Positions 34,814 through 50,479 of a stretch of DNA of 64,000 bases are shown in pieces. The notes beneath the pieces are model-generated. The model saw nothing but the letters and a program-made list of their open reading frames with translations. It did not search any database and had not been told where the DNA came from. This stretch comes from Candidatus Latescibacterota bacterium. GTDB lineage: Bacteria; Latescibacterota; UBA2968; UBA8231. The position numbers and the translations under genes are program-made. The DNA lies in the NCBI GenBank assembly GCA_965223905.1, contig CBDCXV010000011.1, positions 1,568,001 to 1,632,000 on the forward strand. The letters run 5' to 3'. Position 1 is the first letter of the stretch. Each line of letters starts with the position of its first letter.

Positions 34814-35242
34814 ATGCCTGACCTAGGTAAAGCATTCAGGGAAGAAATTTCGCGGGTGGCTGGCAAGGACCTGCGCGCTGCCGTAAACCAGCTGAACGAG
34901 CAAATCCGCAGCCTGCAGGGGGAGGTGTCGGAGCTTAAGTCGCAGATTGCCGGCAACCAGGGGACGACCGGCGAGCCATCCGGGCAGCCCGCAGGCGACG
35001 CCAAGCCGGCGTCCAAGGAGACAGTCAGCGTCAGAGTGACCCCGTCGTCGATCAAGAAGCACCGCAAACGGCTGCGCCTGTCGCAGGCCCAGATGGGCAA
35101 GCTGCTCGGAGTCAGTGCCATAACGATCTTGAACTGGGAGCAGGGCAAGTCGAAACCGCGCGCCGCCAACAGGGAAGCGATCGCCGAGCTGCGCACCATG
35201 AAACTGAAAGATGCCGAGCTGATGCTCGAGGGTATGAGCTAA
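34814..35242 (+). CDS. XRE-family HTH protein with N-terminal coiled coil
   Basis: RKRLRLSQAQMGKLLGVSAITILNWEQGKSKP; RBS AAGGAG. Confidence 0.88.
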   Translation: MPDLGKAFREEISRVAGKDLRAAVNQLNEQIRSLQGEVSELKSQIAGNQGTTGEPSGQPAGDAKPASKETVSVRVTPSSIKKHRKRLRLSQAQMGKLLGVSAITILNWEQGKSKPRAANREAIAELRTMKLKDAELMLEGMS

Positions 35243-35437
35243 AGAGGCAGCACGCCAACAACAGAACACCTCGCGGCTGACTATTCAGGTGTTTCTGTTT
35301 GTTCCTGGTTGGTGTTGGCACACGGCAGTTTCCAGTTGGGAGCCCCGCACGGCGGCTACGCTGGCTGCAGTCGGTATGTTTCGGATCCAGTTTCGCCCTT
35401 CACTCACCGAGTGGAGTCACAAACGGCAATGATCCTT

Positions 35438-35482
35438 CGGCAGTGAATTCGGGTGGCTTGGCCCCACCCGAATTCACTGCCG
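35438..35482. terminator. Perfect 19-bp hairpin between convergent genes (terminator or REP-like)
   Basis: CGGCAGTGAATTCGGGTGG-CTTGGCC-CCACCCGAATTCACTGCCG; no long U-tract. Confidence 0.55.
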
Positions 35483-35569
35483 TTCTGCCGACCCCGGAAG
35501 ATCCTCGCTCATCCCCCCTCGCTTCAGACCTGTGCAACCGCGGAACCGCCCGGGGGCGCAAACAGTCCT

Positions 35570-37228
35570 TCACTCTTCCCCTTTTCGAATCCACAAGCTC
35601 GCCGCTACCCGCCTTATTCGTTCGTCGCGCCATTCGACGTCGCTCCGGTAGCGGTCGCGTAACCCCTCGACGTACCTCTCGAACGCCTCCCTGTTCCTGG
35701 CCTGCCTGACCTGGTGCCGCAGGATCCGGGTCAGCTCCTCGAACGCGCGCGGCCTCCGGGGCAGCCGCTTTTCGACGCGCACGACCGCGAACCCGCCTTC
35801 GATTTCAAGCGGACCCAGAAGCGCTCCTTCTTCCGCTTCCCGGACGAGATCGAAGAGCCGTTCCCGTTTTTCCCCTTCCCCATCTTTCAGGTGTAAATGC
35901 CCGCCGGTTCCGTCGGCCCCCGGACGGATGCTGTGGTCCCGGGCCAACTTCTCCATGTCCGCGCCCGCCTCGATCCGCAGCCGCAGCGCGGCCGCGGCGG
36001 CCCGTGACTCGACCAGGATCTCTATCACCTCAACCGACGCCGGCAGCATGAACTCTCCCTTGACTTCCTCGTACCGGTCGCGCAGCTCCTCCTCCCCGGG
36101 AGGGCCGACCTGGTCCAAAACCTCCCGCCGCAGCCGGTCGATGAGCAGCTTCTTCTGCTCCAGCTCCAACGCCGACGCGAACTCCTCGGTTTGGTGAAGG
36201 CCGCGGCGCTCCGCTTCCAGCACCGCCAGGGTGTCGGCGATCACCCAGTAGCGGAGAGCCCTGGCGACTGAGACGCTGTCCACCAGGGCGGGGGGTTTCA
36301 TCCCCTTTCCCACCAGGATTCGTCCGGCCTCCTGCGCGGAGATCACCCTGTCGCCCCCCCAGGTCAGGGCCGGGTCCTCCAAGGCGAGCCCGGCCCGGGG
36401 ATCCTGCCGGCCCGCCCGCACCATCGCGACGACCGCTTCGGGGTGGTAGGCGACCGCGAATCTCTGTTCGAGCTCCTCGAGCCAGGCCTCGCGCCGCGCC
36501 ATGGCTTTGCGGCGCTTCAGGGCCGCGGCGACCGCCGCCCCTGCCTGCTCGATGGGGACAGGGACCGCATCGAGAACCTTGAGCAACTCGAAACCGCTTC
36601 CCGCGGCCAGCGGTCCGGCGATTTCGCCCGGCGACAGTCCGCGCACCGCCGCCCAGAGCTCCCGGGGCAGCTCTCCGGGCCCGAGGTAGCGCCCAAGGTC
36701 CCCACCCCCTTCTGCGTCCGGGGCGGTCGAGCGCTGCTTCGCCACCTCGGCGAAGTCCGCCCCCTCGCCCAGGGCGCGTGCGGCCTCTTCCGCCTCGGCT
36801 TTCGTAGCGCAGGAGATATGGGCGATCCGCAGCTTCACGTCCCATCCGTCCCGCCGGTACGCCGCCTCGATCTCCTCCTCCCCGACGGAGACGGAATCCC
36901 CCAAGGCCTCGGCGAGGACCTGTTCCCTGAGCCGCTTCACGTAGATTTTGCGGAGCGGCCTGACGATCTCGGGTTTTTCAGGGTACCCGACGGCCCTCGC
37001 CTCGGCGAGCATCAGCTCGCGGTCGACGAGGCTCCGGAGCAGATCGCGGACCGTCTCCTCGCGCGATTCGGCCGCGGCCGAATCCTGCCTCAGGCCGTCC
37101 GGCAGCCTCGACGCGAACTCGGCAAGCTCCCTCTCTCCAATGGGGACGTCCAGCACCCGCACCAGGGGTTCGTCGGCGGGCCCGCCACAGCCGGTCAGGA
37201 GGAGGAGCGCCGGCGCCGCCCGGGTCAC
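35570..37228 (-). CDS. Parvulin (PpiC)-type peptidyl-prolyl isomerase lipoprotein, SurA/PrsA-like, two rotamase domains
   Basis: Lipobox LTGC; IAHI..FAEVAKQRS..GGDLG and EILV..LARDHS..GGHL; GTG overlaps the upstream TGA. Confidence 0.88.
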   Translation of the reverse strand: MTRAAPALLLLTGCGGPADEPLVRVLDVPIGERELAEFASRLPDGLRQDSAAAESREETVRDLLRSLVDRELMLAEARAVGYPEKPEIVRPLRKIYVKRLREQVLAEALGDSVSVGEEEIEAAYRRDGWDVKLRIAHISCATKAEAEEAARALGEGADFAEVAKQRSTAPDAEGGGDLGRYLGPGELPRELWAAVRGLSPGEIAGPLAAGSGFELLKVLDAVPVPIEQAGAAVAAALKRRKAMARREAWLEELEQRFAVAYHPEAVVAMVRAGRQDPRAGLALEDPALTWGGDRVISAQEAGRILVGKGMKPPALVDSVSVARALRYWVIADTLAVLEAERRGLHQTEEFASALELEQKKLLIDRLRREVLDQVGPPGEEELRDRYEEVKGEFMLPASVEVIEILVESRAAAAALRLRIEAGADMEKLARDHSIRPGADGTGGHLHLKDGEGEKRERLFDLVREAEEGALLGPLEIEGGFAVVRVEKRLPRRPRAFEELTRILRHQVRQARNREAFERYVEGLRDRYRSDVEWRDERIRRVAASLWIRKGEE

Positions 37229-39864
37229 AGCTGGACCCCGGCATATATGGTGATGAAGCTCCGCGTCGTCACTTCCGGCCTGAGTCCCTCGGGGTCCGTG
37301 CGCACCAGCTCGAAACCGAAGGTCGTCATCAGGTCGTAGCCCATGTACGCGGAGGCGTTGCGCAGCTGCACCGCGGTCGTCAGCCCGGTCGAGCTGTCCT
37401 CGCTGTCGGGCGGAGGCGGGTCCCGCAGCTGCCTGAAGATCTCGTACTCGAGGCCCAGCTCGACGAAGCTCTTCCGCATCACCGGAAAGCGCAGCATCGC
37501 CATGAACAGCTCGGTCAGCTCGCGGCGCTTGAACTCGTCGGCGAACACCGGCACCTGGCGCCGGAACTCGCTCTTCCAGCGCGGCACCAGGGTCCAGCGG
37601 CCGAGCTCGAGGGTGTACTCCGCCTTGTTGATCAGGCCCAGGAAGGAGCCGTCCCGCCGCGTCCTTCGCAGGCGCAGCTCGAGGTCGTCGTCGAGCTGGT
37701 GGTAACGCTGCCATTTCAGTTTGTGAGTCAGCCTGATCCCGGCGGGAATCCGGTGGTAGAACCCGAGCCAGGTGGTGTTGATCCAGGTGTTCCTCGCCGG
37801 CAGCCGGTCCACTACCAGCTGCAGGGCTCCGCGCGTCCCCGCCGGCTGCCGCCACTGCAGGAGATCGTCGGCGATCGTGTCCCTGACCCGGCGCAGATCC
37901 TGAAAAACCAGGAGGCGGCCCCAGCGGGGGTGGTCCCGCTCTCCTGCCAGCGTGAGGTACGACGCCTCGGTGACGCGGTCGTCGGTCAGCTGATCCATCT
38001 GCAGGCGCCCGATCATCAGGCGCGAGTCCGGACCGAGGTTGGCCCCGCCGAACAGGTTGAAACCCTCGCGGTCCCGCTTGTACGGGTAGTCCGGCTCCTC
38101 GTCGTTCTCGAAGCGGTCGACGACGGCGTTGTGGTTCATGTCGACGCCGTAGAGGAACTCCGGGCGGTCGGCGTGGAAACGCAGGAACGGCTCCTCGTAG
38201 TCGGGAATCAGGTTGGGGCGGTCCTCGTTGTCGTTCTGGTTGAAGTCGGAGATGAAGTCGTTGTTCTCGTCCCAGCCCGGGAACACCTCGTCGTCGCCGG
38301 CCCCCCAGCCCTTGCGCCGCCAGTCCGGCCGCCGGTCCTGGTCGTCGTTGTCCTCTACCATCTCGTAGAGCTCGAAATCGTTCCCGAAGGCGAGCACCCC
38401 GGTCTCGTCCGAGGTGACGAACGAGGTCGAGTAGCGCGGCGAGACGCTGAAAAGCTCGACGAAACCGAACCAGGGCAGGGCCGTCTTCGACAGGTTGGCC
38501 ATCCAGGCCAGCGCCTGGCTGCTCGCCGAGTGGTGGCTCTTCAGTCCGGGGTTGGGGTACTGGCGGAACTGGTGGTTGACGTCGATCTCGGCGTACCCCT
38601 TGAACCCGTGCAGTTCGGCGACCTCGAGGGTGAACCCGGCGATCTGGTTGGCCGTCGGCAGGCCGTAGTCGAGCGCCAGCACGCGCTGGTTGGAGCCGTC
38701 CTTGACGTTGCCCGACGCCTGCGCCGCCGGCAGAAAGACCCGCTGGTCCCGGTCGTTGTACTGGCGGTCGGACGACATCTCGATCAGGTAGTCGTTGGCG
38801 ACCACCAGTTCCACCTGGACCTGTTCGATGTCCGTGGTGCTCGGACCGATGTAGCTGACGTCGGTGAAGTCGTAGCGCAGCTGGATCTCCTCGGTGCCGT
38901 CGGCGGAGAGATAGCCGCGGCGCTCGAAGCCGCCGTCGACGAAGGGACGGAACCCGATCTCGCTACCGCGCACCTCGTTCCCCTCTACGTCCCGGATGAG
39001 GATGTCGCTGGAGAAGAAGGCGCCGCCCCCCTCGTTGTCCTCGGGGGAGTCGTCCTTTATCGCCACGGCGATCTCCGTCACCGGGGCGAAGTTCATCGCC
39101 TCGGTCAACTGCCCCTGGAAGATGTCGCCGTTGACCGCCTCGAGCTGGGACTGCGAGTGGTGGGAGTTGACGTAGGTGCCGCCGATGCGGGCGAAGTCGC
39201 CGACCTGGGCGACCACCCTGCCGCCGAAGAGGTTGGTGTTGTTGGTCCGCGCCTCCGCGGCGAATCCCGACAAGTTGGGGGCGCTGGCACGCGACATCAG
39301 CACCGTGGCCTCGTACTTGTCGGAGGAGAAATCCCACTGGACGCCGTTGAACAGCGGCTTGGAGAAGGTCATCGGAGTCAGGGTGGTGCGGATCCGGCTG
39401 CCCACGGTGATCGCGTAGTGGTACTGCCCCTTGTGGTCGGCGGCGACGACGAGGTTGTTGAACCAGAAGTTGAACTCCCTGCTCTTTTCGAGGGTGCTGC
39501 CGAACGGCTGCGGATTGCGCTGCCGCCAGTCGTAGATCAGCCACCCCCGCGTCAGGTAGTTGCCGTACACGTCGTAGAAGTACTCCCCCTCGAGGGCGGT
39601 GCCGACGTAGCGCTGGTACTGGCGCCGCGAGTAGTTGGAGTACTCCCGCTGGCGCCACTGGTACTCGACGTACAGCTCCTGGGGCACGTACCACTTGTGC
39701 ACCGCCGGATCGAGGGCGTCGGTGAGAATCCCCGGGCCGGTCGGCTCGAAGGTCACCCGTCCCCCTCGCGTCACCGTTCCCAGGCGGGCGCCGAACTCCT
39801 GGGCCTCGAGGCCGGCTGCGGCCAGCAGCAGACCGGCCGCGAAAATGAGAATCGGACGTGTCAT
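37225..39864 (-). CDS. Large exported protein, putative outer-membrane beta-barrel (paralog B2)
   Basis: Signal peptide ..LEA/QE; many amphipathic strands; C-terminus FITIYAGVQL; paralog of 41903..44578. Confidence 0.82.
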   Translation of the reverse strand: MTRPILIFAAGLLLAAAGLEAQEFGARLGTVTRGGRVTFEPTGPGILTDALDPAVHKWYVPQELYVEYQWRQREYSNYSRRQYQRYVGTALEGEYFYDVYGNYLTRGWLIYDWRQRNPQPFGSTLEKSREFNFWFNNLVVAADHKGQYHYAITVGSRIRTTLTPMTFSKPLFNGVQWDFSSDKYEATVLMSRASAPNLSGFAAEARTNNTNLFGGRVVAQVGDFARIGGTYVNSHHSQSQLEAVNGDIFQGQLTEAMNFAPVTEIAVAIKDDSPEDNEGGGAFFSSDILIRDVEGNEVRGSEIGFRPFVDGGFERRGYLSADGTEEIQLRYDFTDVSYIGPSTTDIEQVQVELVVANDYLIEMSSDRQYNDRDQRVFLPAAQASGNVKDGSNQRVLALDYGLPTANQIAGFTLEVAELHGFKGYAEIDVNHQFRQYPNPGLKSHHSASSQALAWMANLSKTALPWFGFVELFSVSPRYSTSFVTSDETGVLAFGNDFELYEMVEDNDDQDRRPDWRRKGWGAGDDEVFPGWDENNDFISDFNQNDNEDRPNLIPDYEEPFLRFHADRPEFLYGVDMNHNAVVDRFENDEEPDYPYKRDREGFNLFGGANLGPDSRLMIGRLQMDQLTDDRVTEASYLTLAGERDHPRWGRLLVFQDLRRVRDTIADDLLQWRQPAGTRGALQLVVDRLPARNTWINTTWLGFYHRIPAGIRLTHKLKWQRYHQLDDDLELRLRRTRRDGSFLGLINKAEYTLELGRWTLVPRWKSEFRRQVPVFADEFKRRELTELFMAMLRFPVMRKSFVELGLEYEIFRQLRDPPPPDSEDSSTGLTTAVQLRNASAYMGYDLMTTFGFELVRTDPEGLRPEVTTRSFITIYAGVQL

Positions 39865-41903
39865 CACCAAGCCACCGCCAGGACGCCGGAGTGGGTCTCC
39901 TCGAATGCATCCGCGGCGACCCGGAGCACCCAGACGTAGGTCCCGGGAAGCGCCCGGCGTCCCCCGGCGGTGCGCCCGTCCCAGGTGAAGGAAGCAGGCC
40001 CCAGGTCCCGCTCCGCCTGCAGCGAGGCGATGGAGCGCCCCGAGAGATCGTACAGGTCGAGGGAGACCGGCACCGACCGGACCACCTGCAGCAGGTTGAA
40101 GCGGACCCTCAGCTCGTCGTTGGCGCCGTCCCCGTTCGGGGTGACGACGCGGCTGTCGAGGACGATCTCCCCGACCAGCCGGCCGATCTGCTCCTTGGGG
40201 ATCTCGACGGTGAGGTGGGACAGCTCGTCGATGTCGCCGGGCCCGAAGTCGACGGCGTTGCCCGGCTCGAGCCGCTGCGGCACCGTGGGGAAGCGGCTGT
40301 CGAACACCCTGCCGGTGAAGGTCGTGCCGAAGCGGAAGATCGGGATGTCGAAGGTCAGCTCGAGGACCGAGCCGTCGCGGTCGATCCTCGGCAGGCTGAT
40401 GCGGAAACCGTCCCGGGTCGAGGACTCGATCTCGAACTCGACCGGGACGCCGGCGACCTGGACGTTGCGGATCCCCTCGACCGGGGCGTTGCTGTCGATC
40501 TCCAGGCGGTCGTACCCGTGGATATCCCCCCGGCCGCGCAGGAGCACGGCGTAGCGGAAGGTCGCCGGCTCCTCCGCTCGGGCCAGCCGCGGGAACACCT
40601 CGGCGCGCAAGGTGTCGGCGATCGGGGGCTGCAGGTAGTCGAACTCGAGCCGCTCGAGGAGCCGCGTGTCGAAGAGGCCCCCGGCGAACTCCATGCGGAA
40701 GCGGACGAATCGCCGCGGCGCCGGCGCCGGGTTGAGGCCGCGGTTCTCCAGCGTCTTCCAGGGACTCCAGTTTTCCAGGTCTTCCTGGAGCGTCACCTGC
40801 TCGGACCGGGGCAATCCCCAGTACTCCTCCGCGGTCACCTCGACGATGCGAACGGACATGAACTCCTGGATCCGCTGCAGAAACAGGATCGGCGTATCGT
40901 CGAGGCCGGAGCGCATGCCGACGGTCAGGTTGGAGAAGAGCTCCTCCCCCGCGACCTGCTCGCGCCAGCGGATCGACCCGATGGTAGCCGGCGCACCCAG
41001 GTCGATCAGGTCCGACAGGTAGGTGCCCTGGGGCAGGTACCCGGTCCCGTAGACCTCGATCTCGTCGACTTCGAACGGCAGCTCGGTCAGCGAACGCAGC
41101 TTGATCAGGCGCACGTACTGCGGGGTCAGCGGCACGTCGACCACCGGCTCCTCGTTGTCGTGCTCCCGCACCGCCAGGCGGTCGGGGACCCCCTTGATCG
41201 TGCTGGTCAGCTGCTCGTTCAGCCAGACCTCGTAGCCGCGCAGGAAGTCGTTGTGGAAGGGATGGTCGGGACTGGCGACCACGGTGTTGCGAGGGTAGAA
41301 GCGGATGCGCTCGATCCCCACCCGCTGCCCGAAGTCGAGGATGATCCAGATGCCGAACGCCGGCACCACCGGGTTGAACGGCACCGGCTTGCGCTCGAAG
41401 GCGACCTCGTGATCGCCGTTGACCGTGCCCTCGAGCTGCGCTCTGCGCAGCACCGTCGCCGAGGTCGAGGAGTTGGGCGCCGTGATTGAGCCCTTCCCCT
41501 CGAGAACCAGCCCCGCGATGTTGCGGCTGCCGTCGAAGAAGGTCGGGCTGATCCAGCCGCGCCGCGCCGCGAACTCGATGCCGTTGCCGGGGGTGTTGGT
41601 CGTGTCGAGGGTGGGGCTGAAGCGGCTGCCTGCAAGGATCACCGGATCGGTGCCGTCGCCGCCCTCCTCCCAGGGGTGCTCGCTGCCCCCGAGGACGAAG
41701 GTCCGCACCTCGGCGGCGGCCGCGGACAGCGCCAGCAGGAGACCTGCGGCGGCCAGCAGCCCGCAGCGAACCTCCTGCCCCAGTTGCGGTCGTACCCCCG
41801 GGAAGGCTCCGCCAGGACCGCGCACCGGGGGCCGGCCGGACGCCGAGACGCCCCCGGGGGCCCGCAGGCCCGGTCGCCTGGCTGCCGCCAGGGTCGGCTC
41901 CAT
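39864..41903 (-). CDS. Secreted protein with discoidin-like domain and C-terminal TPNGDG/FlgD-Ig domain (paralog A3)
   Basis: LDFG..IERIRFYP, EIEVYG, TPNGDGAND, LYDLSGR, WDGR..PGTY; ATG overlaps the upstream TGA. Confidence 0.85.
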   Translation of the reverse strand: MEPTLAAARRPGLRAPGGVSASGRPPVRGPGGAFPGVRPQLGQEVRCGLLAAAGLLLALSAAAAEVRTFVLGGSEHPWEEGGDGTDPVILAGSRFSPTLDTTNTPGNGIEFAARRGWISPTFFDGSRNIAGLVLEGKGSITAPNSSTSATVLRRAQLEGTVNGDHEVAFERKPVPFNPVVPAFGIWIILDFGQRVGIERIRFYPRNTVVASPDHPFHNDFLRGYEVWLNEQLTSTIKGVPDRLAVREHDNEEPVVDVPLTPQYVRLIKLRSLTELPFEVDEIEVYGTGYLPQGTYLSDLIDLGAPATIGSIRWREQVAGEELFSNLTVGMRSGLDDTPILFLQRIQEFMSVRIVEVTAEEYWGLPRSEQVTLQEDLENWSPWKTLENRGLNPAPAPRRFVRFRMEFAGGLFDTRLLERLEFDYLQPPIADTLRAEVFPRLARAEEPATFRYAVLLRGRGDIHGYDRLEIDSNAPVEGIRNVQVAGVPVEFEIESSTRDGFRISLPRIDRDGSVLELTFDIPIFRFGTTFTGRVFDSRFPTVPQRLEPGNAVDFGPGDIDELSHLTVEIPKEQIGRLVGEIVLDSRVVTPNGDGANDELRVRFNLLQVVRSVPVSLDLYDLSGRSIASLQAERDLGPASFTWDGRTAGGRRALPGTYVWVLRVAADAFEETHSGVLAVAW

Positions 41904-44578
41904 CACTCCAACCCCGCGTTCACGGTGAAGAACATCAGGTTCGCCCGCTCCCGCCGCCCGAGCTCGAACGCCCGCCGCGTCCACTGCATTCCGGTGCGCG
42001 TCACCACCCGGTATCCCTGGTAGGCGACCTGGTTGGTCAGCTGCACGACCACCGTCCAGGTGCGCAGGTCCTGGTCGATTTCCGCCCGCCTCCCCTTCAG
42101 CATCCACAGCTTCGACAGCTCGAGGCCGGCCTGCAGCCCGGTGTCGAAGATCTGCCGGCCGTAACGGGCGAAGTACGACGCCCGCGTCTGTTCGGCGAGC
42201 AGCGGCTGCGACCAGATCAGGAAGACCGTCTCCTCGACGCTGGCCGCCTTCTCCAGGCGGATCCGGTAGGGGCGGTCGAAGCGCAGCTCGCTCTTCCAGC
42301 GCGGCTGAAAGAACCCGAGGCCGACCGGCACCGACCACTCCGCCTTGTCGATGAGGCCGACGAAACCCGAGCGCCTGCGGGCCAGCCTGCGCGCCACGGC
42401 CTTGTCGCCGTCGCGCTGGAGGGCGATGTCCCACTTGAAGCGGTGCATCATGCGCAGGCCCTCGACGAGGCGGTGGCTGAGGTCGGCGTAGAAGGAGTTC
42501 TTCCAGGTGTTGCGCGCCGCCAGCGGATCCTCGACGTCCCGCATGCGCCCGATGGCGCCGACCGGCTGCACCCACTGCTGCAGGTCGTCGGGGACGTCGT
42601 CCCGGACCAGGGCGCCGAAGTCGAAGACCCGCACCTTCCCGAACCCGGACAGCTCCCGCTTCCAGGCCGCCATCCCGTAGAGCGCCCGGGTGTGCCCGTC
42701 GCCGGAGATCAGGCCGCTGTTCTGGCCGCCGACGAGGAGACTGCCGCCCCCTCCGGCCCGCACCTTCAGGTAGAGGTTGTAGCCGCGGTGATCCCTTCGG
42801 TACGGATAGTCGGGGAGGCGGTCGTTCTCGAACCGGTCGATGGTTCCGTTGTGGTTCATGTCGGTGCCGAAGAGGAACTCCGGGCGGTCCGACCGGTAGC
42901 GCAGGAACGGCTCGTCGTAGTCGGGGAACAGGTTGAGGTTCTGGTTGTGGTCGTGGATGAAGTCGCCGTTCTCGTCGTACCCCGGCCAGGCCACCTCCCG
43001 CGTCGAGCGCTGGAACGGCCGCTCCCACTCCGGGACGGCGTTGAAGTCGTCGTCGTCGTCGACGAACTCGTAGAGGTCCGCTATGCGCGCCTTGAAGCGG
43101 ATGGTGCCGTCGGACTGGGTTAGCCAGTAGGCGGTCGCGTAGGCGTCGTCGATGGAGAACAGCTCGGCGTACAGCTTCCACGGGAAGCGCTGATATGCGG
43201 CCTGGGCATAGCCGGCGCGCGCGTTGCGGGTCGCGTGGTGCTGGAGCCCCTCCTCGAGGTTGGGGTACTTGCCGTGACGCCGGTTCAGCACTGCCTCCCC
43301 CTGCAGCGACAGGCCGCCGAGGTCGACGACGTTGAAGTCGACGCCGATCAGCTCGTTCCCGGTCGGCAGCAGGTAGTCGAGCTTCAGCACCCTGCTGTTG
43401 CTGTTGTCGCGGACGTTGCCGCGGGCGCGGCTGACGGTGGTGAAGACCGGCTCGGCGTTGCGGACCTCGCCGTCGGTCTGCAGGTTGGAGGCCATCTCGA
43501 CCCGGTAGTCGTCGGCCACCGCCAGCTCGAAGCTGACGCGCTGCAGGTCGAGAGACTCCATCCCGTGCTCCTCGCCGAGGGAGGCGAGGTCGTACTCGAG
43601 CACCGCGGCCTCGCTACCGTCCGCGGCGATCGCCCCTTCGCGCAGCACCCCGCCCTTTATCCTCGGCACCAGGCCGATGTCCCGGCCCCGGTGCACGCGC
43701 CCCGACTGGTCGACGAGGATGATCTCGTGGCGGAACAGCGAGGCCCCCCCGCTCCCGTCTTCCGGGGAGTCGTCCCGCAGGCGCACCCACACCTTCTTCA
43801 GCGGCTGGTTCTGCTTCGTCGTCAGCGCCCCGTGCAGCGGGTTGCCGACGTTGAAGTCGACCTGCGTCTGGGCGTTGTGAGCGTTGACGTAGGTGACCCC
43901 CATGGCGACGGCGTCGAGGACGCGGAACGAGGTGTGGCCGCCGAACAGGTGGGTAGAGTTGCTGCGCCGCGCCTGGTCCGGGCTGCTGGGGCGCGACAGC
44001 AGCAGCGACGACTGGTGGCGGTCGGAGGCGACCTCGAGCCGCAGGCCGTTGAAGCGGGGCTTGTTGAAGGTGAGCGGCGTCAGGTGGGTGGAGATCTGGT
44101 CGCCGATCATCAGGCGGAACTGGTGGTCCCAGTGCCCCTCCGAGGCGATGACGAGGTTCTGGAAGATGCTGCCGTAGAAATCGGTGGCGCCCGGGTCGGA
44201 CGGCCTCTTGCGCAGGAAGCTGCCGTTGCGCAGCGACTGCTGCTGCTCCCAGGAGTAGACCAGCCAGCCGCGGCCGAGATGGTTGCCGAACGAGTCGTAC
44301 CACTCGTCCCCTTCGAGCCTGCGGTCGAGGTAGCGCTTGTAGAATTCGGTCGCGTAGCGGGTGTCGGTGGCGAACCACGGATAGCGGTGGTACTCCGGCA
44401 GGTGGATGGGGACGTAGTTCTTGTGGACCTCCGGGACGACGTTCTCCATGCCGAAGGAGGGGGCAAGGCCCCGGGGAAGGGCCGACGGCGTCGCCCCGGG
44501 AACGGCGCCCGGGTACTGGGCCCAGCAGAGCTGCACCGCGGCCCCGGCAACGGCGAAGGAGGCCAGCAGCCTGCCCAT
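41903..44578 (-). CDS. Large exported protein, putative outer-membrane beta-barrel (paralog B1)
   Basis: Signal peptide ..CWA/QY; C-terminus FFTVNAGLE; paralog of 37225..39864. Confidence 0.82.
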   Translation of the reverse strand: MGRLLASFAVAGAAVQLCWAQYPGAVPGATPSALPRGLAPSFGMENVVPEVHKNYVPIHLPEYHRYPWFATDTRYATEFYKRYLDRRLEGDEWYDSFGNHLGRGWLVYSWEQQQSLRNGSFLRKRPSDPGATDFYGSIFQNLVIASEGHWDHQFRLMIGDQISTHLTPLTFNKPRFNGLRLEVASDRHQSSLLLSRPSSPDQARRSNSTHLFGGHTSFRVLDAVAMGVTYVNAHNAQTQVDFNVGNPLHGALTTKQNQPLKKVWVRLRDDSPEDGSGGASLFRHEIILVDQSGRVHRGRDIGLVPRIKGGVLREGAIAADGSEAAVLEYDLASLGEEHGMESLDLQRVSFELAVADDYRVEMASNLQTDGEVRNAEPVFTTVSRARGNVRDNSNSRVLKLDYLLPTGNELIGVDFNVVDLGGLSLQGEAVLNRRHGKYPNLEEGLQHHATRNARAGYAQAAYQRFPWKLYAELFSIDDAYATAYWLTQSDGTIRFKARIADLYEFVDDDDDFNAVPEWERPFQRSTREVAWPGYDENGDFIHDHNQNLNLFPDYDEPFLRYRSDRPEFLFGTDMNHNGTIDRFENDRLPDYPYRRDHRGYNLYLKVRAGGGGSLLVGGQNSGLISGDGHTRALYGMAAWKRELSGFGKVRVFDFGALVRDDVPDDLQQWVQPVGAIGRMRDVEDPLAARNTWKNSFYADLSHRLVEGLRMMHRFKWDIALQRDGDKAVARRLARRRSGFVGLIDKAEWSVPVGLGFFQPRWKSELRFDRPYRIRLEKAASVEETVFLIWSQPLLAEQTRASYFARYGRQIFDTGLQAGLELSKLWMLKGRRAEIDQDLRTWTVVVQLTNQVAYQGYRVVTRTGMQWTRRAFELGRRERANLMFFTVNAGLE

Positions 44579-44826
44579 CAGCGTCCGGTCCCGGAAGCGG
44601 ATCCCCTGAATCCTGTGGCCCCGGCCTCGGGCTCGCGAGCCATCCGGGCGAGGCGCACCGGGTGCGTACTGCCCTCCAAGGCAGGCCCGCGGGACGGGAT
44701 GGCGGGGAAGATCACCGATGGAACAGATGGAGTTGTTCTGGATTCTACCGCGATTCCGCCCATCACAATGAGCCGCACGAAGAAGGGGGAGATACTGTCG
44801 GGACAGGACACCCGTTCCCCCGCCAT
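44578..44826 (-). other. 248-bp segment between 7-bp direct repeats, carrying an 82-aa ORF coupled at both ends
   Basis: CCATCAG at 44575 and 44823; TGATG overlaps on both sides. Confidence 0.45.
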
Positions 44827-47468
44827 CAGTACGCCACCCCGACCGCGGCCAGGGCCGATCCTGCGGCATCGGCATCGGTAGGGACGGCGACGCGCACGAG
44901 GTAGAGGCCGGGACCCACCCGCCTGCCCTCGTCGTCGCTGCCGTCCCATGCGACGGCGTGCTGCCCGCTGGGAATCTGCCGCACTCCCCCGAGGTCGCGG
45001 ACCTTGCGGCCGGACAGGTCGTACACCCCCACCTGCAGGTCGCGCTCCCCCTTGATCCGGAACACCGAGAACAGGATCCGGGTGCCCTCGTTGACGCCGT
45101 CGCCGTTCGGCGTGAACAGCGCCGGTTGCGCCCGTACCTGATCGAGGATGGGGGCGTCCTCGACGTCGGCGACCACCACCATCGACTCGCTGCGGACGTC
45201 GCCGACCGCGTCCCCTTCCGTGAAGGCCTGCACCACCCCGGGCCGCTGCGAGTTCAGCAGCTCCACGGTGAACGTGGTCCCGCTCAGGAACACCTTCGTC
45301 CGTATCTCCGCCCTGTAGAGCAGGGCGCCGCCGCTGACCCGGCGCGGCAGCTCGACGACCACCCCGCCCTCCTCCAGGGTCTCGATGCGGGCGCTGCCGG
45401 GCCACAGCGCCCTGCCGCGGCCGCCGCGCAGCTGCGCGGCGCTCCCGGACTGCAGCGACACCAGCTCGATCGGGGCCGCCGACGACGAGCGCAGCCGCAT
45501 GCGATCGAACCCGGAATCGCCGCTCTGGAACTCGGGGCGCAGGTAGATGGCGAACTCCTCCTCGGCCCCGGGGCGCACTCCCTGGTTCGGCCAGATCTCG
45601 GCGAAGGTCTGCTCGACGAGCGGCGCTTCCAGCCCCAGCTCGATACGCCGGATGCTCGCGGCGCGCAGCGGGTCGGCCGTAAACAGGCGCACCTGCAGCA
45701 TCAGCATGCGCCGCGGACTGGGGGACCTGAACGACTCCCCCTGGTCCCGGTAGGGCTCGCTCCAGGCACTCCAGCCTTCGCCGGTGAACTCCTCCGTGGT
45801 CGTGAATCCCCGGTTGCGCTCCGAGGTCTCCTCCCACTGCTCCTCGCTGATCTCGCGCCCGAACAGGTCGTAGTAGCGCTTGACCAGCAGCAGGTCGTCG
45901 CCGCTGCGGCTGCGCACCTCGAGACGCGTGCCCTCCGGCGCCTCCCCCTCCCAGTGGACCCCGGTGAAGATGCGCGACGTCCCCAGCTTGACGATGGGGG
46001 ATTCCAGAACGACTTCGGAGACGTGCCCCTCGCCGTACGCCTGCAGCTCGCTCAGGCTGCGGTTGATCTCGGTCCGCGCCCCGGAGAGCTCGAGCCGGCG
46101 CAGCTCGATCAGCCGCACCTCCCGCGGCGGGAATCGCTCCTCGAGCTGCAGGAACGCCTCCCTGTTGTGGCGCTCCTCGAAGTCCTCCCAGACGCGGTTG
46201 CCGTTCGGGTCGACGGAGCCGTCCGATACGCGCAGCTGGTAGGCGGTGAGGGCATCCTGGGCGCTGAGCAGGCGGATGCGGTCGATCCAGAACCTGGCGC
46301 CGAGGTCGACGAGCAACTGGTTGCGATTGCGCAGGGGGTCGTACAGGCGCAGCGGGTAGAAGGAGGAGTAGAGACCGTCGGTCGAAACGGTGAGGACGAT
46401 GTCCTCGAACAGGTCGGTGGCGCGGTTGCGCAGGCGCTGGGTCAACCCGACGGCGTTGTCCCCGAGAGCGATGACCTCGAGCTCGGCCACCCGCGGGCGC
46501 TCGTGCCGGTAGTGGCGGACCGGGCCCTGCTCCTCGGCCGGCAGCTCCTCCCAGGTTTCCTCCTCGACCAGGATCTCTCGGCCGGCGACGGTCTGGCGGA
46601 AATGCTCGACGGCCCCCTGGTCATGGGCCGACAGCAGGGCATACTCCTCAGCGGTGACCTCCTCGCCTCGCGGACCGTCGGTGTCGAGGGCCTCGAGCCA
46701 GACCATCTGCGCCACCTCGCCGGCGACGCCTGGAGGGAGCGGGCGCTGCCGCGGCACCTCGAACTCGAACTCCCGCTGCTCCTTGTTGCGGCGGGTCACC
46801 TGGGCGACGCGGTAGAACTCGGCGTCGTAGCGGGTCGCGGTGTTGGTGGTGGCGCGTCCGTTCGACAGCAGCACGCGGAACTTCAGGAAGGGGTCTCCGG
46901 CCCCTTCCCCGGCGAACTTCACCCGCACCCGGTCGGCGATCACCGCGCGCCCGAGGTCCACTTCCAGGAACCAGTTCCGCAGCGAGTCCGGATCCTCCGG
47001 CTCCCAGTAGGTAAGCGGGTCGCCGTCCATGACCAGCGCCGCGGTCTCCCGGCTGGTGCCGGCCTGGCGCACCCCCCCGACGACCGTATCCCCAATGGCG
47101 ATCACCTCGAAGTCGGTGGCGTTCAGCATGGCGTTGATGCGGCGCCGCAGGAATCTCGGCCTCACTTCCCCCTCCTCGATCAGGTGCCCCCCCACGGCCC
47201 CCTTCCAATCCCGCCAGTGGCCGTCCCCGCGCACGGTCAGGCGGTTCCCGGCGACGGTGTAGCCGCGCTGTGCATCGGTCGCGCCGGCGCCGAGAAAGAC
47301 CACGGAGAGCAGGATCCAATGGCGGAATCGGATGCCGAGGTTCACGGCTGAATTGTGCGGCCTTTTCGCGACCGCGGCGATCCTGTGCCGCCCTTTTGCC
47401 GGAATGCTCCGGTCCGGATGCTTCCCCGGGGAGGATAGCCGGCAGGTCCGTGGGCCGCGGCGGGTCAT
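44826..47468 (-). CDS. Secreted protein with two discoidin-like domains and C-terminal TPNGDG/FlgD-Ig domain (paralog A2)
   Basis: MDGDPLTYW..LEVDLG, VDLG..IDRIRL, ELQAYG, FTPNGDGVNE, VYDLSGR, WDG..PGLY; start uncertain. Confidence 0.85.
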   Translation of the reverse strand: MTRRGPRTCRLSSPGKHPDRSIPAKGRHRIAAVAKRPHNSAVNLGIRFRHWILLSVVFLGAGATDAQRGYTVAGNRLTVRGDGHWRDWKGAVGGHLIEEGEVRPRFLRRRINAMLNATDFEVIAIGDTVVGGVRQAGTSRETAALVMDGDPLTYWEPEDPDSLRNWFLEVDLGRAVIADRVRVKFAGEGAGDPFLKFRVLLSNGRATTNTATRYDAEFYRVAQVTRRNKEQREFEFEVPRQRPLPPGVAGEVAQMVWLEALDTDGPRGEEVTAEEYALLSAHDQGAVEHFRQTVAGREILVEEETWEELPAEEQGPVRHYRHERPRVAELEVIALGDNAVGLTQRLRNRATDLFEDIVLTVSTDGLYSSFYPLRLYDPLRNRNQLLVDLGARFWIDRIRLLSAQDALTAYQLRVSDGSVDPNGNRVWEDFEERHNREAFLQLEERFPPREVRLIELRRLELSGARTEINRSLSELQAYGEGHVSEVVLESPIVKLGTSRIFTGVHWEGEAPEGTRLEVRSRSGDDLLLVKRYYDLFGREISEEQWEETSERNRGFTTTEEFTGEGWSAWSEPYRDQGESFRSPSPRRMLMLQVRLFTADPLRAASIRRIELGLEAPLVEQTFAEIWPNQGVRPGAEEEFAIYLRPEFQSGDSGFDRMRLRSSSAAPIELVSLQSGSAAQLRGGRGRALWPGSARIETLEEGGVVVELPRRVSGGALLYRAEIRTKVFLSGTTFTVELLNSQRPGVVQAFTEGDAVGDVRSESMVVVADVEDAPILDQVRAQPALFTPNGDGVNEGTRILFSVFRIKGERDLQVGVYDLSGRKVRDLGGVRQIPSGQHAVAWDGSDDEGRRVGPGLYLVRVAVPTDADAAGSALAAVGVAY

Positions 47469-49393
47469 CAGTACACCACCGCCACGATCCCCTGCCGCAC
47501 CTCGGGATCGCCGTCCCCGCGCACCTGCAGCCGGTAGATGTAGGTCCCGGGCGCCACGAGCGCGCCGTCACTGCCGCGGCCGTCCCATACCTGCCTGTGG
47601 TTGCCGACCGGCTGCACCGCCTCGACAGCCGCCACCCGGCGCCCGCTGAGATCGAACAGCGACAGCTCCACCTGCGCCGGCCGGGTCACCGTCAGCAGGG
47701 AGTAGCCGATCCCGAGCCCGTCGTTGACGCCGTCCCCGTTGGGCGTCAGCACCGGATGATCGAGCCCGAAGTTGGCGAGCAGCGGGGCGCGTTCCCCCTC
47801 TTTCTCCAGGGTGACGACCAGCCCCTGCGCCGCGGTCTCGGCGTCGGCGTCGCCCGGAATCGCGAATTGGTACCCCGTCTCTTCCAACGTGATGGTTCCC
47901 TTCGTGACCCGCTTCTCGATGACGCGGTCGTCGAAAACGCGGATCCGGAACGCGGTCTTGTCGCGGTACACGGTGCCCCGGAAGAACACCTGGACGAACG
48001 ACCCGTCCTGCTCGACCGGGCGCAGCAGGTTGACGAGCATGCCCCCGGGGTGACGCCGGGAGGTGAAGGCGACGTTCCGGTCGTCGACCCGGACCTGCCG
48101 CACCCGCCGGATGTGGGCATCGGTCTCGATCAGGATGCGCTCGAAGCCGGTGTCGCTGCTGCGACCCCGGCTTCCGGAAGAGGAAATCTTCATGTGGGCC
48201 AGCATCGCCAGGGAGAACTCCGTCTCCACCCCCGCGGCCACCGTGTCGGGGCTCACCTCGGCGACGAGGCTGCGCACCAGCGGCGGACTGATCATCTCGA
48301 ACACCAGGCGGTCGAGACGCACCCCGGGGGTGAACAGGCGCACCCGGAACTGCATGAAACCCTTGAGGTTCGGGGAGCGCACTATTCCCTGCGACACCGG
48401 CTCCCAGCCGGTCCAGTTGGGGTTCGGGCGGATGGGTCCTCGCAGGTGAGGGTAAGCCCTCATGTACACCGCCCTGTCCTTTGCCCGGACGATCTCGTCC
48501 CCATCCTCCTCGAGAAGGAAATACCACTCCGGTTCCTTGTCGGGCCCCACCCGGGTATGGATCAGCACCGGGGAAGAATCGACCCCCCTGCCTTCGTAGC
48601 GGACAAGGCCGAACACCCTCGATCCCGACCGGATCGGCTTCGAGAGGAACTCCCCCGTCGGCAGCGAGCCGTCCCCGTAGACCTCGAGCTCGGCGATCTC
48701 CCAGGGCCGCTCGGAGGTCGCGGCGATGCGGACGAAGCGCACGTCCCGGGACTCGAACCGCTTCTCGACAACGGGCTGAAAGTTGGGCAGGGCAGGATAG
48801 AAGGAGAACAGCTCCTCGAACTCGCCGAGGACATACGAGGGGTGGGTGGCGACGGAGAACTCCTGCAGAAAGCGGCGCTGGTTGCGCGGGTCGAGGCGGG
48901 GAAAGAAGCGCAGCCGGTTGACGCGGAAAGTGCCGCCGAGGTCGAGGTAAATCGGTGTCGTCCGCCCGAAACCCTCCCTCCGGGACTGCCCGGAGATCAC
49001 GTCGGCGTCGTAATAGGTCAGCGGGTCGCCGTCGGCGAGCACCTCGGCGCCGGGGATCGATATCGCTGCCGGCCCCATGAACCCCCGGACGATCCGAATG
49101 ACCAACCCCCCTCGCCGACTCATGGTCAGGGAGAGGTTGGCGTCCGGCTCGACACCCCACATCCAGATGGAGTCCGCACCGACACCGATGAAGCGGGAGG
49201 CCTCAAGTTGCTTGTTCCAGCCGCCCTGCCGGGAGTTCAGGCCGACCACAAGGGAGTCGATGGCGCCGGCGGATTCGACCAGGACGAGGAGGAGAAGAAA
49301 AATGGATGCGGGAACCACCGGGGTGAACTTCAGGGCAAGGAGCGGGAATCGGACCGCAAGCGCATCGTACCTCTTTTCCTGCGCTGGGCTCAT
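47468..49393 (-). CDS. Secreted protein with discoidin-like domain and C-terminal TPNGDG/FlgD-Ig domain (paralog A1)
   Basis: DGDPLTYY, LDLGG..VNRLRFFP, ELEVYG, LTPNGDGVND, LFDLSGR, WDGR..PGTY; alternative start GTG 49318. Confidence 0.85.
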   Translation of the reverse strand: MSPAQEKRYDALAVRFPLLALKFTPVVPASIFLLLLVLVESAGAIDSLVVGLNSRQGGWNKQLEASRFIGVGADSIWMWGVEPDANLSLTMSRRGGLVIRIVRGFMGPAAISIPGAEVLADGDPLTYYDADVISGQSRREGFGRTTPIYLDLGGTFRVNRLRFFPRLDPRNQRRFLQEFSVATHPSYVLGEFEELFSFYPALPNFQPVVEKRFESRDVRFVRIAATSERPWEIAELEVYGDGSLPTGEFLSKPIRSGSRVFGLVRYEGRGVDSSPVLIHTRVGPDKEPEWYFLLEEDGDEIVRAKDRAVYMRAYPHLRGPIRPNPNWTGWEPVSQGIVRSPNLKGFMQFRVRLFTPGVRLDRLVFEMISPPLVRSLVAEVSPDTVAAGVETEFSLAMLAHMKISSSGSRGRSSDTGFERILIETDAHIRRVRQVRVDDRNVAFTSRRHPGGMLVNLLRPVEQDGSFVQVFFRGTVYRDKTAFRIRVFDDRVIEKRVTKGTITLEETGYQFAIPGDADAETAAQGLVVTLEKEGERAPLLANFGLDHPVLTPNGDGVNDGLGIGYSLLTVTRPAQVELSLFDLSGRRVAAVEAVQPVGNHRQVWDGRGSDGALVAPGTYIYRLQVRGDGDPEVRQGIVAVVY

Positions 49394-49611
49394 TCCCGTT
49401 CCCTCCGCGGAGCGGGCCGAAAGGGGGCCGGCTCCAACCCAAAGGTTCACCTAAAAATCGCGGGTAATTTAGCGGAAACGAATACGCAAACCAACCTTGA
49501 AAAAAGATTTCCCAAGGACGGGATGTTCAGGACGTATTCTTTGTAAAAAAAACGGCTCATGGGTTCGACGTCCGGCTCCAATGCAATTCAGGATTGGATT
49601 TGCCCAAGACT

Positions 49612-50076
49612 CTAATCAATCATGGAAGCCTTGATTCGACCCCAGGAAACCGACTCCACCGCGCTGTCACCCGGGTGGGCAGGGTCGGCGGACAGCAGCA
49701 GCCCATCGAGAAATGTATCCGCCCGATGGAGAAACATGTTCCAGAGCGTGCGGTCGCTCTCGTCTGATCGCTGAACATCGAGCGCCCAATTACTCCACTC
49801 GATATCGCCAGGTGGGTCATGGTCAAAGACTACAATCGAAAAACCGATCACCTGTCCCGCGGCAAAATGGCTGACCACGCTCCCCTCGGGGTGGACCCAC
49901 GTTTCCCCCCAGCGGTCGAACGGGGTCACTTACATCTCGATCACCCAGAGGATCGGCGGTTCTCCGGCCACGCCGAGGTGAGCCTCCGCAGACAGCCCGA
50001 ATCCGAGGAGCAGAACGAGGGCGGCGGACAATTCCTTCTTGATACAACGGTTCACGAACTTTAAAAAACGGTTCAC
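49612..50076 (-). pseudogene. Internally deleted secreted protein with SWGRIKA tail
   Basis: Signal peptide (..AEA/HLG) joined directly to C-terminal part WVIEM*VTPFD..IGFSI..DSAVESVSWGRIKA; in-frame TAA at 49930-49932. Confidence 0.72.
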
Positions 50077-50452: not shown

Positions 50453-50479
50453 AGCATAATGGGGGGGAGAAATAGTCAA
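50453..50479 (-). promoter_or_regulatory. Candidate sigma70 promoter with C7 tract in spacer
   Basis: TTGACT-15 nt-TATGCT on minus strand. Confidence 0.35.

Follow-up and report, generated by a model that had tools for sequence, protein, structure and literature searches.

To our knowledge, the biology of the T9SS (type IX secretion system) has been learned almost entirely from Bacteroidota, where type-B cargo relies on small PorP/SprF barrels. In the same phylum, Sus pairs are multiplied within each genome, and the susC-susD order puts the barrel gene first and the binder gene second. Type-B CTD proteins are described as binding PorP-like barrels (PMC9143113), and the account given for F. 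johnsoniae is that they require cognate, genetically linked PorP/SprF shuttles (PMC12618676). Here we describe an operon in which an uncultured FCB lineage joins the same kind of tail to a different, much larger and wholly unannotated barrel family, which we call B and which takes the PorP/SprF position beside type-B-like cargo. If the pairing is functional, it would make B a class of outer-membrane partner new to type IX secretion, and a testable handle on polysaccharide binding, perhaps import, in abundant sediment and water-column bacteria; at minimum, the analysis gives names and context to several large groups of "hypothetical proteins", namely the B family, the body of the A proteins and a ~300-aa D family.

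The window (the whole 64,000-nucleotide stretch of DNA that was analysed) contains six genes, all on the minus strand, in the order A1-A2-B1-A3-B2-P. The three A proteins are putatively secreted. A1 (47468..49393, 641 aa) was assigned from its ORF and start, Pfam and paralogy; A2 (44826..47468) has 880 aa, with another possible start at GTG 47345, and A3 (39864..41906) has 653-680 aa, its candidate starts being GTG 41906, ATG 41903 and GTG 41825. B1 (41903..44578, 891 aa) and B2 (37225..39864, 879 aa) are predicted outer-membrane β-barrels, and P (35570..37228, 552 aa) is a predicted lipoprotein with two parvulin PPIase domains. Direct reading of the junctions bears out the gene order and the TGATG/GTGA coupling claimed in the first-pass annotation, with TGATG at A1/A2, GTGATG at B1/A3, GTGATGA at A3/B2 and GTGA at B2/P. 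Signal peptides and the lipobox of P were read by eye from the N-termini. A promoter and terminator scan of 34800-51600 gave counts no higher than the shuffled expectation, and Rfam matched nothing on 34000-52500.

Between A2 and B1 there is an 82-codon ORF (44578..44826, minus strand), located within a 245-nt insertion; its ATG overlaps the A2 stop and its stop overlaps the B1 ATG, so that the coupling for which it had been described as a small coupled ORF is real. Its membership in the system is another matter: since the insertion is missing in the closest relative (L028, with a B2 95% identical), in which the stop codon of A2 directly overlaps the B1 ATG, and since it has no other copy in the window's own genome, comparison of the loci suggests that the ORF is a private addition and probably not a conserved gene of the system. 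A mobile element was considered for this spacer and ruled out, again because a second genome copy was lacking.

The three A proteins are paralogs, as had been proposed, with 30% identity between A1 and A3 (BLASTP E 1e-48), 27% between A1 and A2 (E 1e-28) and 27% between A2 and A3 (E 3e-29); judged by these alignments, paralogy among them, as well as between B1 and B2 (37% identity over 866 aa, E 2e-176), which had likewise been called mutual paralogs, is far above chance. A1 consists of a hydrophobic, signal-like N-terminal segment, a β-sandwich body and a tail at residues 548-637 that matches both CHU_C (35.0 bits, Pfam cut-off 27) and FlgD_ig (27.3 bits). The A3 tail scores 33.1 bits with CHU_C, above the same cut-off of 27, while the A2 tail scores 28.1 bits with FlgD_ig and 17.4 with CHU_C, under the 27-bit cut-off. 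The original description of a FlgD-Ig tail is therefore correct as far as it goes, with CHU_C, a T9SS type-B sorting domain, matching as well. On the NCBIfam type-B model TIGR04131 (cut-off 35 bits) A1 reaches 17.2, under the cut-off, and A2 and A3 are absent from the matches. Because TIGR04131 failed, A2 is under the CHU_C cut-off and FlgD_ig matched about equally, "type B" as used here for the A tail denotes resemblance at the level of sequence profiles, not clean membership. CHU_C was matched by 28/28 aligned A-type proteins at E<=0.01, and there are 46 CHU_C matches over cut-off in the own genome. The tail motif TPNGDGxN(D/E), noticed at the outset in the window, proved to be real: it occurs in 45 genome copies, every one of which is placed 60-110 residues ahead of a stop codon.

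The bodies of the A proteins appear lectin-like. A2 carries an extra N-terminal discoidin domain (F5_F8_type_C_2 36.8 bits, F5_F8_type_C 30.0; PF00754/PF22633, over cut-off), whereas A1 and A3 have no F5/8 type C match in Pfam, so that, of the A proteins first described as sharing discoidin-like motifs, A2 alone reaches the Pfam cut-off for the domain. Among 43 own-genome A proteins, 13 contain F5/8 type C at E<=1e-5; the domain families found in this set are CHU_C, FlgD_ig and F5_F8_type_C only, with no enzyme domains. An AlphaFold2 model of A3 (pLDDT 85.5) shows three β-sandwich domains followed by the CHU_C tail, and the folds that it matches are, among others, those of galactose oxidase (CBM32 plus Ig), PorU, the Fn3 domains of C5a-peptidase and the CBM32 of ZmpB, with galactose oxidase and ZmpB CBM32 among the best, at low TM-score.

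B, which begins in B1 with MGRLLASFAVAGAAVQLCWAQ, should by prediction form a large β-barrel of roughly 24 strands in the outer membrane, and structure prediction and fold searches both support the initial view of it as a large barrel. In B2 we distinguish a conserved, aromatic-rich N-terminal region (~23-135), an inserted β domain (~264-365) and an Asp-rich loop (~500-598). Neither B1 nor B2 matches a Pfam family even at E<=10, an NCBIfam family at E<=0.01 or the PorP/SprF HMMs (PF11751, TIGR03519), and the B alignment, used as a profile to search PDB sequences, returned only two chance-level LSm4 rows (E ~0.5). With Foldseek and VIA-align, the B2 model hits outer-membrane barrels only, at Z 12-14, in a generic manner with no standout; a BtuB-like chain (8p97_A, Z 10.5) is found among many such generic barrels, and no T9SS barrel is among the fold matches listed. 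The family comprises 1232 representative clusters at E<=0.001, all unnamed, as are the 30 ESM Atlas clusters obtained with the B homologue P0005. DUF6029, the nearest named ESM Atlas cluster for that query (0.89), is under the trust level and was rejected as the identity of B. B matches no described family, only generic barrel folds, and the early suspicion that it lies outside the named families has thus held in Pfam, NCBIfam, PDB profile and ESM Atlas searches, none of which gave a trusted name.

The pairing of A and B is repeated well beyond the window. The own genome (7.9 Mb, Latescibacterota-like) has ~35 B barrel genes, the window's two included, in 22 B-containing blocks, the window operon being one of them, and an A match is present in 21 of the 22. 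In the window, A2 is ahead of B1 and A3 ahead of B2; likewise, across 80 related loci, 95 of 106 B genes have the end of a same-strand A tail no more than 450 nt upstream, and the co-occurrence predicted for a synteny survey is therefore found. Counted from the tail, 18 of the 45 own-genome motifs have B directly next and 38 have B within 10 kb. The adjacency holds from a B identity of 95% down to ~47%, also in differently arranged loci. B is present in 75/75 genomes of its own family; sister families lack both the tail class and B, and same-class genomes without B have CHU_C at E<=1e-5 in 0/5 cases. With some twenty repeats of the pairing in one genome, the A-B operon has the look of a module specific to the lineage, with surface display or uptake as its putative function.

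P is less faithful. Its Pfam matches (Rotamase_2 86.0 bits, Rotamase 70.8, Rotamase_3 45.7; PF00639/PF13145, over cut-off) each fall in two stretches, and an LLTGC lipobox can be seen by eye; its scores against NCBIfam equivalogs are all under cut-off (PRK00059 65.8/303, PpiD-like PRK10788 53.6/493, SurA 29.7/394). The P family occupies 19 genome places, 11 of them inside A-B blocks (11/22 blocks), and of the orthologous loci just the two closest have P after B2, so that it cannot be kept as the fixed member of the module that it was first thought to be.

The first-pass annotation had also called for a search for core T9SS genes, which here covered SprA, PorU, PorV, GldK and GldM and gave a mixed outcome. 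SprA (607.6 bits summed) and PorU (617 bits) are encoded in the own genome over cut-off, and directly after PorU there is a PorV-like gene with a best match of 91 bits, under the cut-off of 250. A GldM search of the same genome gave no match and all GldK-like matches are under cut-off, so the T9SS is here divergent or incompletely detected. SprA was also found in 5/5 B-bearing genomes from five other families (6/6 with the own genome). Given the CHU_C tails together with SprA, PorU and the adjoining PorV-like gene, the gene content suggests that the A-B module is probably an accessory of the T9SS and not the self-contained secretion system that had been envisaged. PorP/SprF (TIGR03519, PF11751) had no match in the own genome, an absence that is weakly founded since 14 control genomes gave none either; within the own family it was found in 0/75 genomes, while in another family (f4) PorP_SprF was found in 26/31, at 20-28 bits and so near the cut-off. 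A complementary PorP/B distribution was set aside as support for a replacement of PorP by B, in view of these near-cut-off scores and of two f4 genomes without CHU_C tails.

Based on this, our preferred reading, to which we give a probability of about 0.45, is that the A proteins are T9SS cargo of a type-B kind for which the downstream-encoded B barrel acts as holder or receiver at the surface, with P as an accessory periplasmic chaperone. The three lectin-like, non-enzymatic A proteins would cross the inner membrane by Sec, and their type-B-like C-terminal domain (TPNGDGxND...DLSGR...WDG) would direct outer-membrane passage through the T9SS translocon SprA. On the cell surface, the barrel encoded directly downstream would then take up each A protein and retain it there, a step that we model on the PorP/SprF shuttle or anchor barrels in the same genetic position beside Bacteroidota type-B cargo. 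The double-parvulin lipoprotein P may serve as an optional periplasmic folding helper for very large barrels or cargo.

The main rival, which we consider unlikely on balance, is nutrient capture of the Sus kind, in which A would bind surface glycans and feed a B import channel, possibly energised, with the rest of a PUL-like locus supplied by DUF6785/6784 as permease of the inner membrane and by catabolic enzymes encoded nearby; such a scheme is compatible with T9SS delivery of A. The discoidin/CBM32-like domains of A, with no enzyme domain, and the multiplication of the cassette into 22 blocks, as for Sus pairs, speak for it, and so do the neighbours. The window operon is flanked by GH32, sulfatase, rhamnose mutarotase, gluconolactonase and a GH42-like gene, and other loci by GH32/43, sulfatases, BNR, UxuA and GHL10 (20 of 78 flanking proteins were scanned in the second batch). 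At 7 loci there are polytopic DUF6785/6784 membrane proteins (9-11 hydrophobic segments), and distant B clusters adjoin ExbB, ExbD and a TonB_C protein. These recurring DUF6785/6784 and sugar-catabolic neighbours fit uptake at least as well as display. Many locus flanks, however, carry unrelated genes, and the catalytic CAZymes are neighbours, not fixed members. A SusC chain (5t3r_D, Z 11.3) is among the B2 fold matches, but it is not distinct from ~50 other barrel families; B1 and B2 have no Pfam match to Plug (PF07715) or TonB_dep_Rec at E<=10, and the stretch of B2 that could correspond to the N-terminal plug closing the 22-strand barrel of TonB-dependent transporters (18-138) has a pLDDT below 50 in the model. 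The binder-then-barrel order is also the opposite of susC-susD. Separately, a TonB link for ~250-aa lipoproteins that cluster with the TonB_C protein was dropped because these have no Pfam match of their own.

Our preferred reading and uptake could be merged, and we speculate, as a long shot of much the same standing as the Sus-like scheme, that B is a hitherto unrecognised T9SS-coupled outer-membrane partner class. Each barrel of roughly 24 strands would use conserved surface loops, probably binding calcium, to dock the type-B-like tail of the lectin encoded next to it, and would pass captured glycan inward to the DUF6785/6784 permease; the 20-odd A-B cassettes would then be the Latescibacterota counterpart of the Bacteroidota Sus/PUL, built from unrelated parts.

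That B on its own serves the adjoining A as a dedicated translocon or usher, two-partner-like or usher-like and independent of the T9SS, with the tail as a signal recognised by B, seems to us clearly improbable. It would agree with the export half of the idea first put forward, with the strict cargo-then-barrel adjacency and with the joint presence or absence of tail and B across genomes, and with ~24 strands the barrel is of a size with ushers and LptD, with FimD/PapC and FhaC/CdiB chains among the B2 fold matches. Against it stand the homology of the A tail to a known T9SS signal and the finding of SprA, a core gene of the T9SS, in all six B-bearing genomes tested; B has no POTRA or usher domains in Pfam and only generic fold matches. 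Least probable of all is that A, B and P are envelope proteins linked by co-regulation, A and B making no specific contact (B a structural or porin-like outer-membrane protein, A ordinary T9SS adhesins that travel with it in a duplicating cassette). In its favour, duplication of a cassette by itself preserves neighbours, 7 of the 45 tail-bearing genes lack a B match within 10 kb, and some related-locus B genes are in B-B tandems with no A of their own; against it, the adjacency persists from 95% to ~47% B identity across differently arranged loci, and sister families are without both partners.

Compared with known systems, P resembles SurA/PrsA/PpiD in its two PPIC-type parvulin domains and predicted envelope lipoprotein nature, but belongs to an expanded family in place of a single housekeeping SurA. 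The A-B pair is like SusC/SusD of PULs in combining a putative surface carbohydrate-binding protein with a large outer-membrane barrel, multiplied per genome, and in often having sugar-catabolic genes and a permease-like protein of the inner membrane close by; it differs in a B that has neither TonB-dependent receptor nor Plug domains, in an A that is a β-sandwich with a T9SS-type tail and not a SusD-like TPR lipoprotein, and in the reversed gene order. The closest comparison is with the type-B cargo and PorP/SprF systems of Bacteroidota (SprB-SprF, Fjoh_3952-Fjoh_3951, PG1035-PorP). Here, too, a ~90-aa C-terminal sorting domain matching CHU_C is found on adhesin- or lectin-like, non-enzymatic cargo, the cargo gene is immediately 5' of the outer-membrane barrel gene, there are many paralogous pairs and some orphan cargo genes per genome, and SprA and PorU are encoded in the genome. 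In contrast, B has ~880 aa against ~300, with ~24 predicted strands, conservation in its N-terminal region and a loop rich in Asp, and no HMM or specific fold match; the A tail fails TIGR04131 and matches FlgD_ig equally; and the host is Latescibacterota-like, with a far higher copy number, 45 tails and ~35 barrels in one genome as against the 12 type-B substrates stated for F. johnsoniae (PMC12618676).

The operon spans 35570-49393 and consists of six genes, all on the minus strand: A1 (47468-49393, 641 aa), A2 (44826-47468, 880 aa, with an alternative GTG start at 47345), B1 (41903-44578, 891 aa), A3 (39864-41906, 680 aa from the GTG at 41906), B2 (37225-39864, 879 aa) and P (35570-37228, 552 aa), where A stands for secreted lectin-like proteins, B for large predicted outer-membrane barrels and P for a parvulin lipoprotein. 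For A3, an alternative GTG at 41825 gives a protein of 653 aa with a cleaner signal peptide, matching the orthologs; signal peptides in general, as well as the P lipobox LLTGC, were judged by eye from the N-termini. The stop/start overlaps described in the first-pass annotation are indeed there: TGATG at A1/A2, GTGATG at B1/A3, GTGATGA at A3/B2 and GTGA at B2/P. The same annotation had A2 and B1 joined through a small coupled ORF. This 82-codon frame (44578-44826, minus) has an ATG overlapping the A2 stop and a stop overlapping the B1 ATG, with TGATG at both ends; in the closest public relative (locus L028, with a B2 of 95% identity), no insertion is present and the stop of A2 itself overlaps the ATG of B1. 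The ORF thus sits in a 245-nt insertion that is private to our genome when compared to L028, and of which no second copy was found in our genome; we leave it out of the system.

The B2 frame is open for 1564 codons (37225-41919, minus), spanning all of A3 in another frame, which is a high-G+C artefact; a longer B2 gene was rejected because the orthologs begin at the B2 signal peptide. The ~2 kb upstream of A1 (49450-51500) have a lower G+C content (0.60-0.63) and hold weak ORFs only; there was no Rfam match in this stretch, promoter-like sites were not above chance, and the ORFs at 50593-51381 (minus) and 51520-52401 (plus), upstream of A1, had no Pfam match. Elsewhere in the window, a 2-kb stretch of low G+C (20001-22000; 0.465 vs ~0.68 around it) adjoins a DDE_Tnp_1_4 transposase gene (21831-23183), and a second transposase of this type (63138-63998) is cut by the window end.

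Judged by sequence comparison, the proposed paralogy within both protein sets is beyond doubt, with E values of 2e-176 for B1-B2, 1e-48 for A1-A3 and ~1e-28 for both A1-A2 and A2-A3. In Pfam, A1 and A3 score 35.0 and 33.1 bits against CHU_C, the type-B sorting domain of type IX secretion (T9SS; cut-off 27), with FlgD_ig about at its cut-off; A2 is matched by F5/8 type C (discoidin) as well as by FlgD_ig, and its CHU_C score of 17.4 stays under the cut-off. Neither of the NCBIfam tail models reached its cut-off on the A tails (type-B TIGR04131, 17.2 against 35; type-A TIGR04183, 16 against 23). Built on an alignment of 28 A-type proteins, the AlphaFold2 model of A3 has high confidence (pLDDT 85.5) and comprises three beta-sandwich domains followed by the tail. 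Foldseek matched it to galactose oxidase (CBM32 plus Ig-like), PorU, C5a-peptidase Fn3 and ZmpB CBM32 modules; the TM-scores were low in every case, which is no surprise with a chain of several domains. Against solved structures, the A-alignment profile matched Ig domains of FlgD as well as the C-terminus of PorU. Among 43 A-type proteins from other loci of our genome, 13 have discoidin domains, 34 a tail match and 6 nothing (Pfam, E≤1e-5), and no Pfam family besides CHU_C, FlgD_ig and F5_F8_type_C(_2) appears at this threshold, which argues that the A proteins are of a binding type rather than enzymes.

The B proteins belong to a family for which Pfam (2025 copy) and NCBIfam (June 2026) have no model: B1 and B2 match nothing in either, in Pfam not even at E≤10, and the B family profile found nothing among PDB sequences. 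AlphaFold2 modelled B2 with only moderate confidence (pLDDT 63.8, pTM 0.57), and its N-terminal 120 residues poorly, but the confident parts form a large beta-barrel, in line with the first-pass prediction. In the DSSP assignment we read 23 clear strands, and one more is expected in the poorly modelled N-terminus, so the model suggests a barrel of ~24 strands. In outer-membrane barrels the short connections are usually the periplasmic turns, a rule that also guided the strand count; an inserted beta domain (~264-365) and an Asp-rich segment (~475-598) would presumably lie on the side of the long loops, outside the cell. Across distant paralogs, conservation in B is highest in the Asp-rich segment, with D505, D507, D532, D536, D540, N544, D555, E558, D575, N579, D583 and D588 invariant, and its spacing (DxNxN...D..E) is one that we take to resemble calcium-binding loops. 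Searches with the B2 model (Foldseek, and VIA-align over 48,161 chains) returned outer-membrane barrels only, from many families (SlpA, MtrB, LptD, FimD/PapC, CymA, FhaC, BamA, porins and SusC), at Z 12-14 and TM ~0.2, and none of these stands out. In the ESM Atlas, queried via a stored B homologue, 30/30 of the nearest clusters are without a family.

Our assembly (7.9 Mb, 11 contigs, 93.6% complete), of which the window is C11:1568001-1632000, contains the A-B cassette many times over. B2 finds 51 matching segments in it, including ~20 full-length paralogs of 39-49% identity and more distant tandem clusters. By hand count on a tblastn map there are 22 blocks with B, and 21 of them have a same-strand A match, usually in the order A then B. 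CHU_C exceeds its cut-off 46 times, 37 of these within 10 kb of a B match. The six-frame translation contains the tail motif [TS]P[ND]GD[GN].N[DE] 45 times, always 60-110 residues before a stop; B comes directly next for 18 motifs and lies within 10 kb of 38, leaving 7 with no B match within that distance. Sugar-catabolic neighbours of A-B loci are frequent, without being fixed; the window itself has GH32, a sulfatase, rhamnose mutarotase, gluconolactonase, a GH42-like protein and several dehydrogenases. TPR and FG-GAP/ASPIC proteins also recur in A-B loci. For these neighbourhoods a first set of 88 flanking proteins was scanned completely, together with 20 proteins from a second set of 78; gene calls at other loci came from a crude GC3 filter.

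Two further families accompany the cassettes. A secreted family of ~300 aa has 11 copies, usually just upstream of a cassette's first A (C1:143196-144095, C10:1836992-1837906, C10:1920321-1921229, C11:527420-528397, C11:1702973-1703875, C11:1745791-1746708, C11:1946900-1947826 and four more); it is missing from the window's locus, and had no Pfam match except one weak CBM9_1 (27 bits). Proteins of ~650 aa with DUF6785 and DUF6784 and 9-11 hydrophobic segments stand beside A-B cassettes in seven copies, with both domains confirmed in four (C1:150241-152244, C1:1219100-1221094, C1:1359185-1361125, C10:1116064-1117839) and assignment by BLAST clustering in three (C11:539368-541350, C11:1747043-1748908, C11:1925767-1928076); one possibility is that they act as a transport partner in the inner membrane. 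B paralogs more remote from B2 (24-27% identity) occur two or three in tandem after one A gene (C1:1487000-1504627, C2:278827-297481, C8:34856-42548, C10:2100261-2115939, C11:904786-918105). Near these clusters we find TPR proteins of 1080 aa that have a YfiO-like part, as well as DUF4159, and at individual ones FG-GAP/ASPIC, ExbB, ExbD, a TonB_C protein and an FGE-sulfatase-domain protein; these clusters may represent a second version of the system with a different set of components.

Outside our genome, a word-indexed search gave 1202 B homologs at E≤0.001; none of the 120 listed has a Pfam domain, and those with a name are all 'hypothetical protein', from MAGs labelled Latescibacteria/-ota, Gemmatimonadetes/-ota or Handelsmanbacteria. 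An exhaustive profile search gave 1232 representative clusters at E≤0.001 (422 at E≤1e-30), the best 150 of which were inspected. Species-representative genomes hold at least 598 loci with a B relative; the best 80, which were fetched, are by record label mostly Latescibacterota, with some Gemmatimonadota and one Planctomycetota MAG. In these 80 loci, 106 B genes are preceded by 1500 nt of sequence or more, and for 95 of them an A-type gene on the same strand, with an alignment that extends into the C-terminal tail, ends within 450 nt upstream. Eight of the 11 exceptions come second in a tandem of two B genes; in the other three the upstream A ends more than 450 nt away, or there is none on the same strand. 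Among the 35 loci nearest to the window's B2 (L028-L062), 26 have the order A-B-A-B by hand count, eight run off the end of a contig, and one (L046) is without a same-strand A upstream of its first B. Across a phylum sample, B is found at E≤1e-20 in 105/168 genomes, with 75/75 in the window's family and 0/61 across four families, of which three belong to the same class. CHU_C at E≤1e-5 was absent from 5/5 genomes of three B-less families; the tail class and B are thus present or absent together, a joint presence that, with sampled genomes that are kin, is not a statistical test.

The parvulin is less tightly bound to this arrangement. P has two parvulin domains (Rotamase_2, 86 bits in Pfam) and reaches none of the SurA, PrsA or PpiD equivalog cut-offs of NCBIfam. 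By hand count from a tblastn listing, P-type matches occur in 19 places in our genome, 11 of them inside B-containing blocks; among the 80 related loci, 35 have one anywhere (hand count), and P directly follows the B2 ortholog in L028 and L029 only. In many relatives that place is taken by a lipoprotein of ~500 aa with a leucine-rich-repeat-like end (…DLRGNPLS…), not a parvulin, as read by eye (L042:10412-12346, L045:10508-12133, L049:10478-12134, L059:10558-12066). ORFs resembling an ECF sigma factor and an anti-sigma factor, also by eye, lie 3' of the B2 ortholog at L030:11620-13853 and L033:10635-13054.

A search for the T9SS core recovered SprA (three pieces in one frame, 607.6 bits) and PorU (617 bits) in our genome. 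The best PorV-like match directly follows PorU; its scores of 91 and 48 bits miss the cut-off of 250. None of the GldK-like matches reaches its cut-off, and GldM was not found in our genome. SprA is also present in 5/5 B-bearing genomes from five other families. For PorP/SprF, the Bacteroidota shuttle barrels, neither TIGR03519 nor PF11751 gave a match in our genome, an absence that is weakly founded since control genomes were also matchless. Across the phylum sample, PF11751 matches 31/168 genomes (0/75 in the window's family, 26/31 in one B-less family), all at 20-28 bits, near the cut-off of 22.3, and a PorP_SprF match coincides with B in four genomes.

What the analysis shows are the domains of the proteins, the predicted barrel, the conserved gene order, the co-distribution of the tail with B and the presence of SprA and PorU. 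All steps of transport and contact are inferred in the reading that we tentatively prefer, at a probability of roughly 0.45: the A proteins would be exported by Sec and then pass through the T9SS via their type-B-like tail, and the downstream B barrel would receive and hold them on the cell surface, with P as an optional periplasmic folding helper. The main alternative, possible but doubtful and compatible with the former, is that A and B form a Sus-like device for capture and import together with the DUF6785/6784 membrane protein; discoidin domains, multiplied cassettes and nearby sugar genes would fit it, whereas B lacks any signature of a TonB-dependent receptor. That the operon encodes a dedicated translocon appears improbable to us beside the SprA and PorU of the same genome, and that A and B make no specific contact, beside their recurrent pairing, slightly more so.

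That type-B cargo comes with a cognate barrel is an established concept; the novelty lies in the lineage and in the barrel family, with its size and expansion. Outside subscription journals, our search found no paper joining 'Latescibacter*' with 'type IX secretion' or 'T9SS', and none joining Latescibacterota, outer membrane and polysaccharide utilization; in a 2015 genome analysis of Latescibacteria, the excerpted passages speak of non-specific porins and of TonB-dependent import only (PMC4454575). In Bacteroidota, according to excerpts of the respective papers, PorP-like barrels are bound by type-B CTD proteins (PMC9143113), and type-B CTD proteins of F. johnsoniae need cognate, often genetically linked PorP/SprF shuttles, with some orphan cargo sharing a shuttle (PMC12618676). 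The A-B system resembles these type-B/PorP-SprF pairs in that an A cargo gene is followed by a barrel gene, in many pairs and with some orphans; unlike PorP/SprF, however, B is unrelated by every test that we ran, and three times larger.
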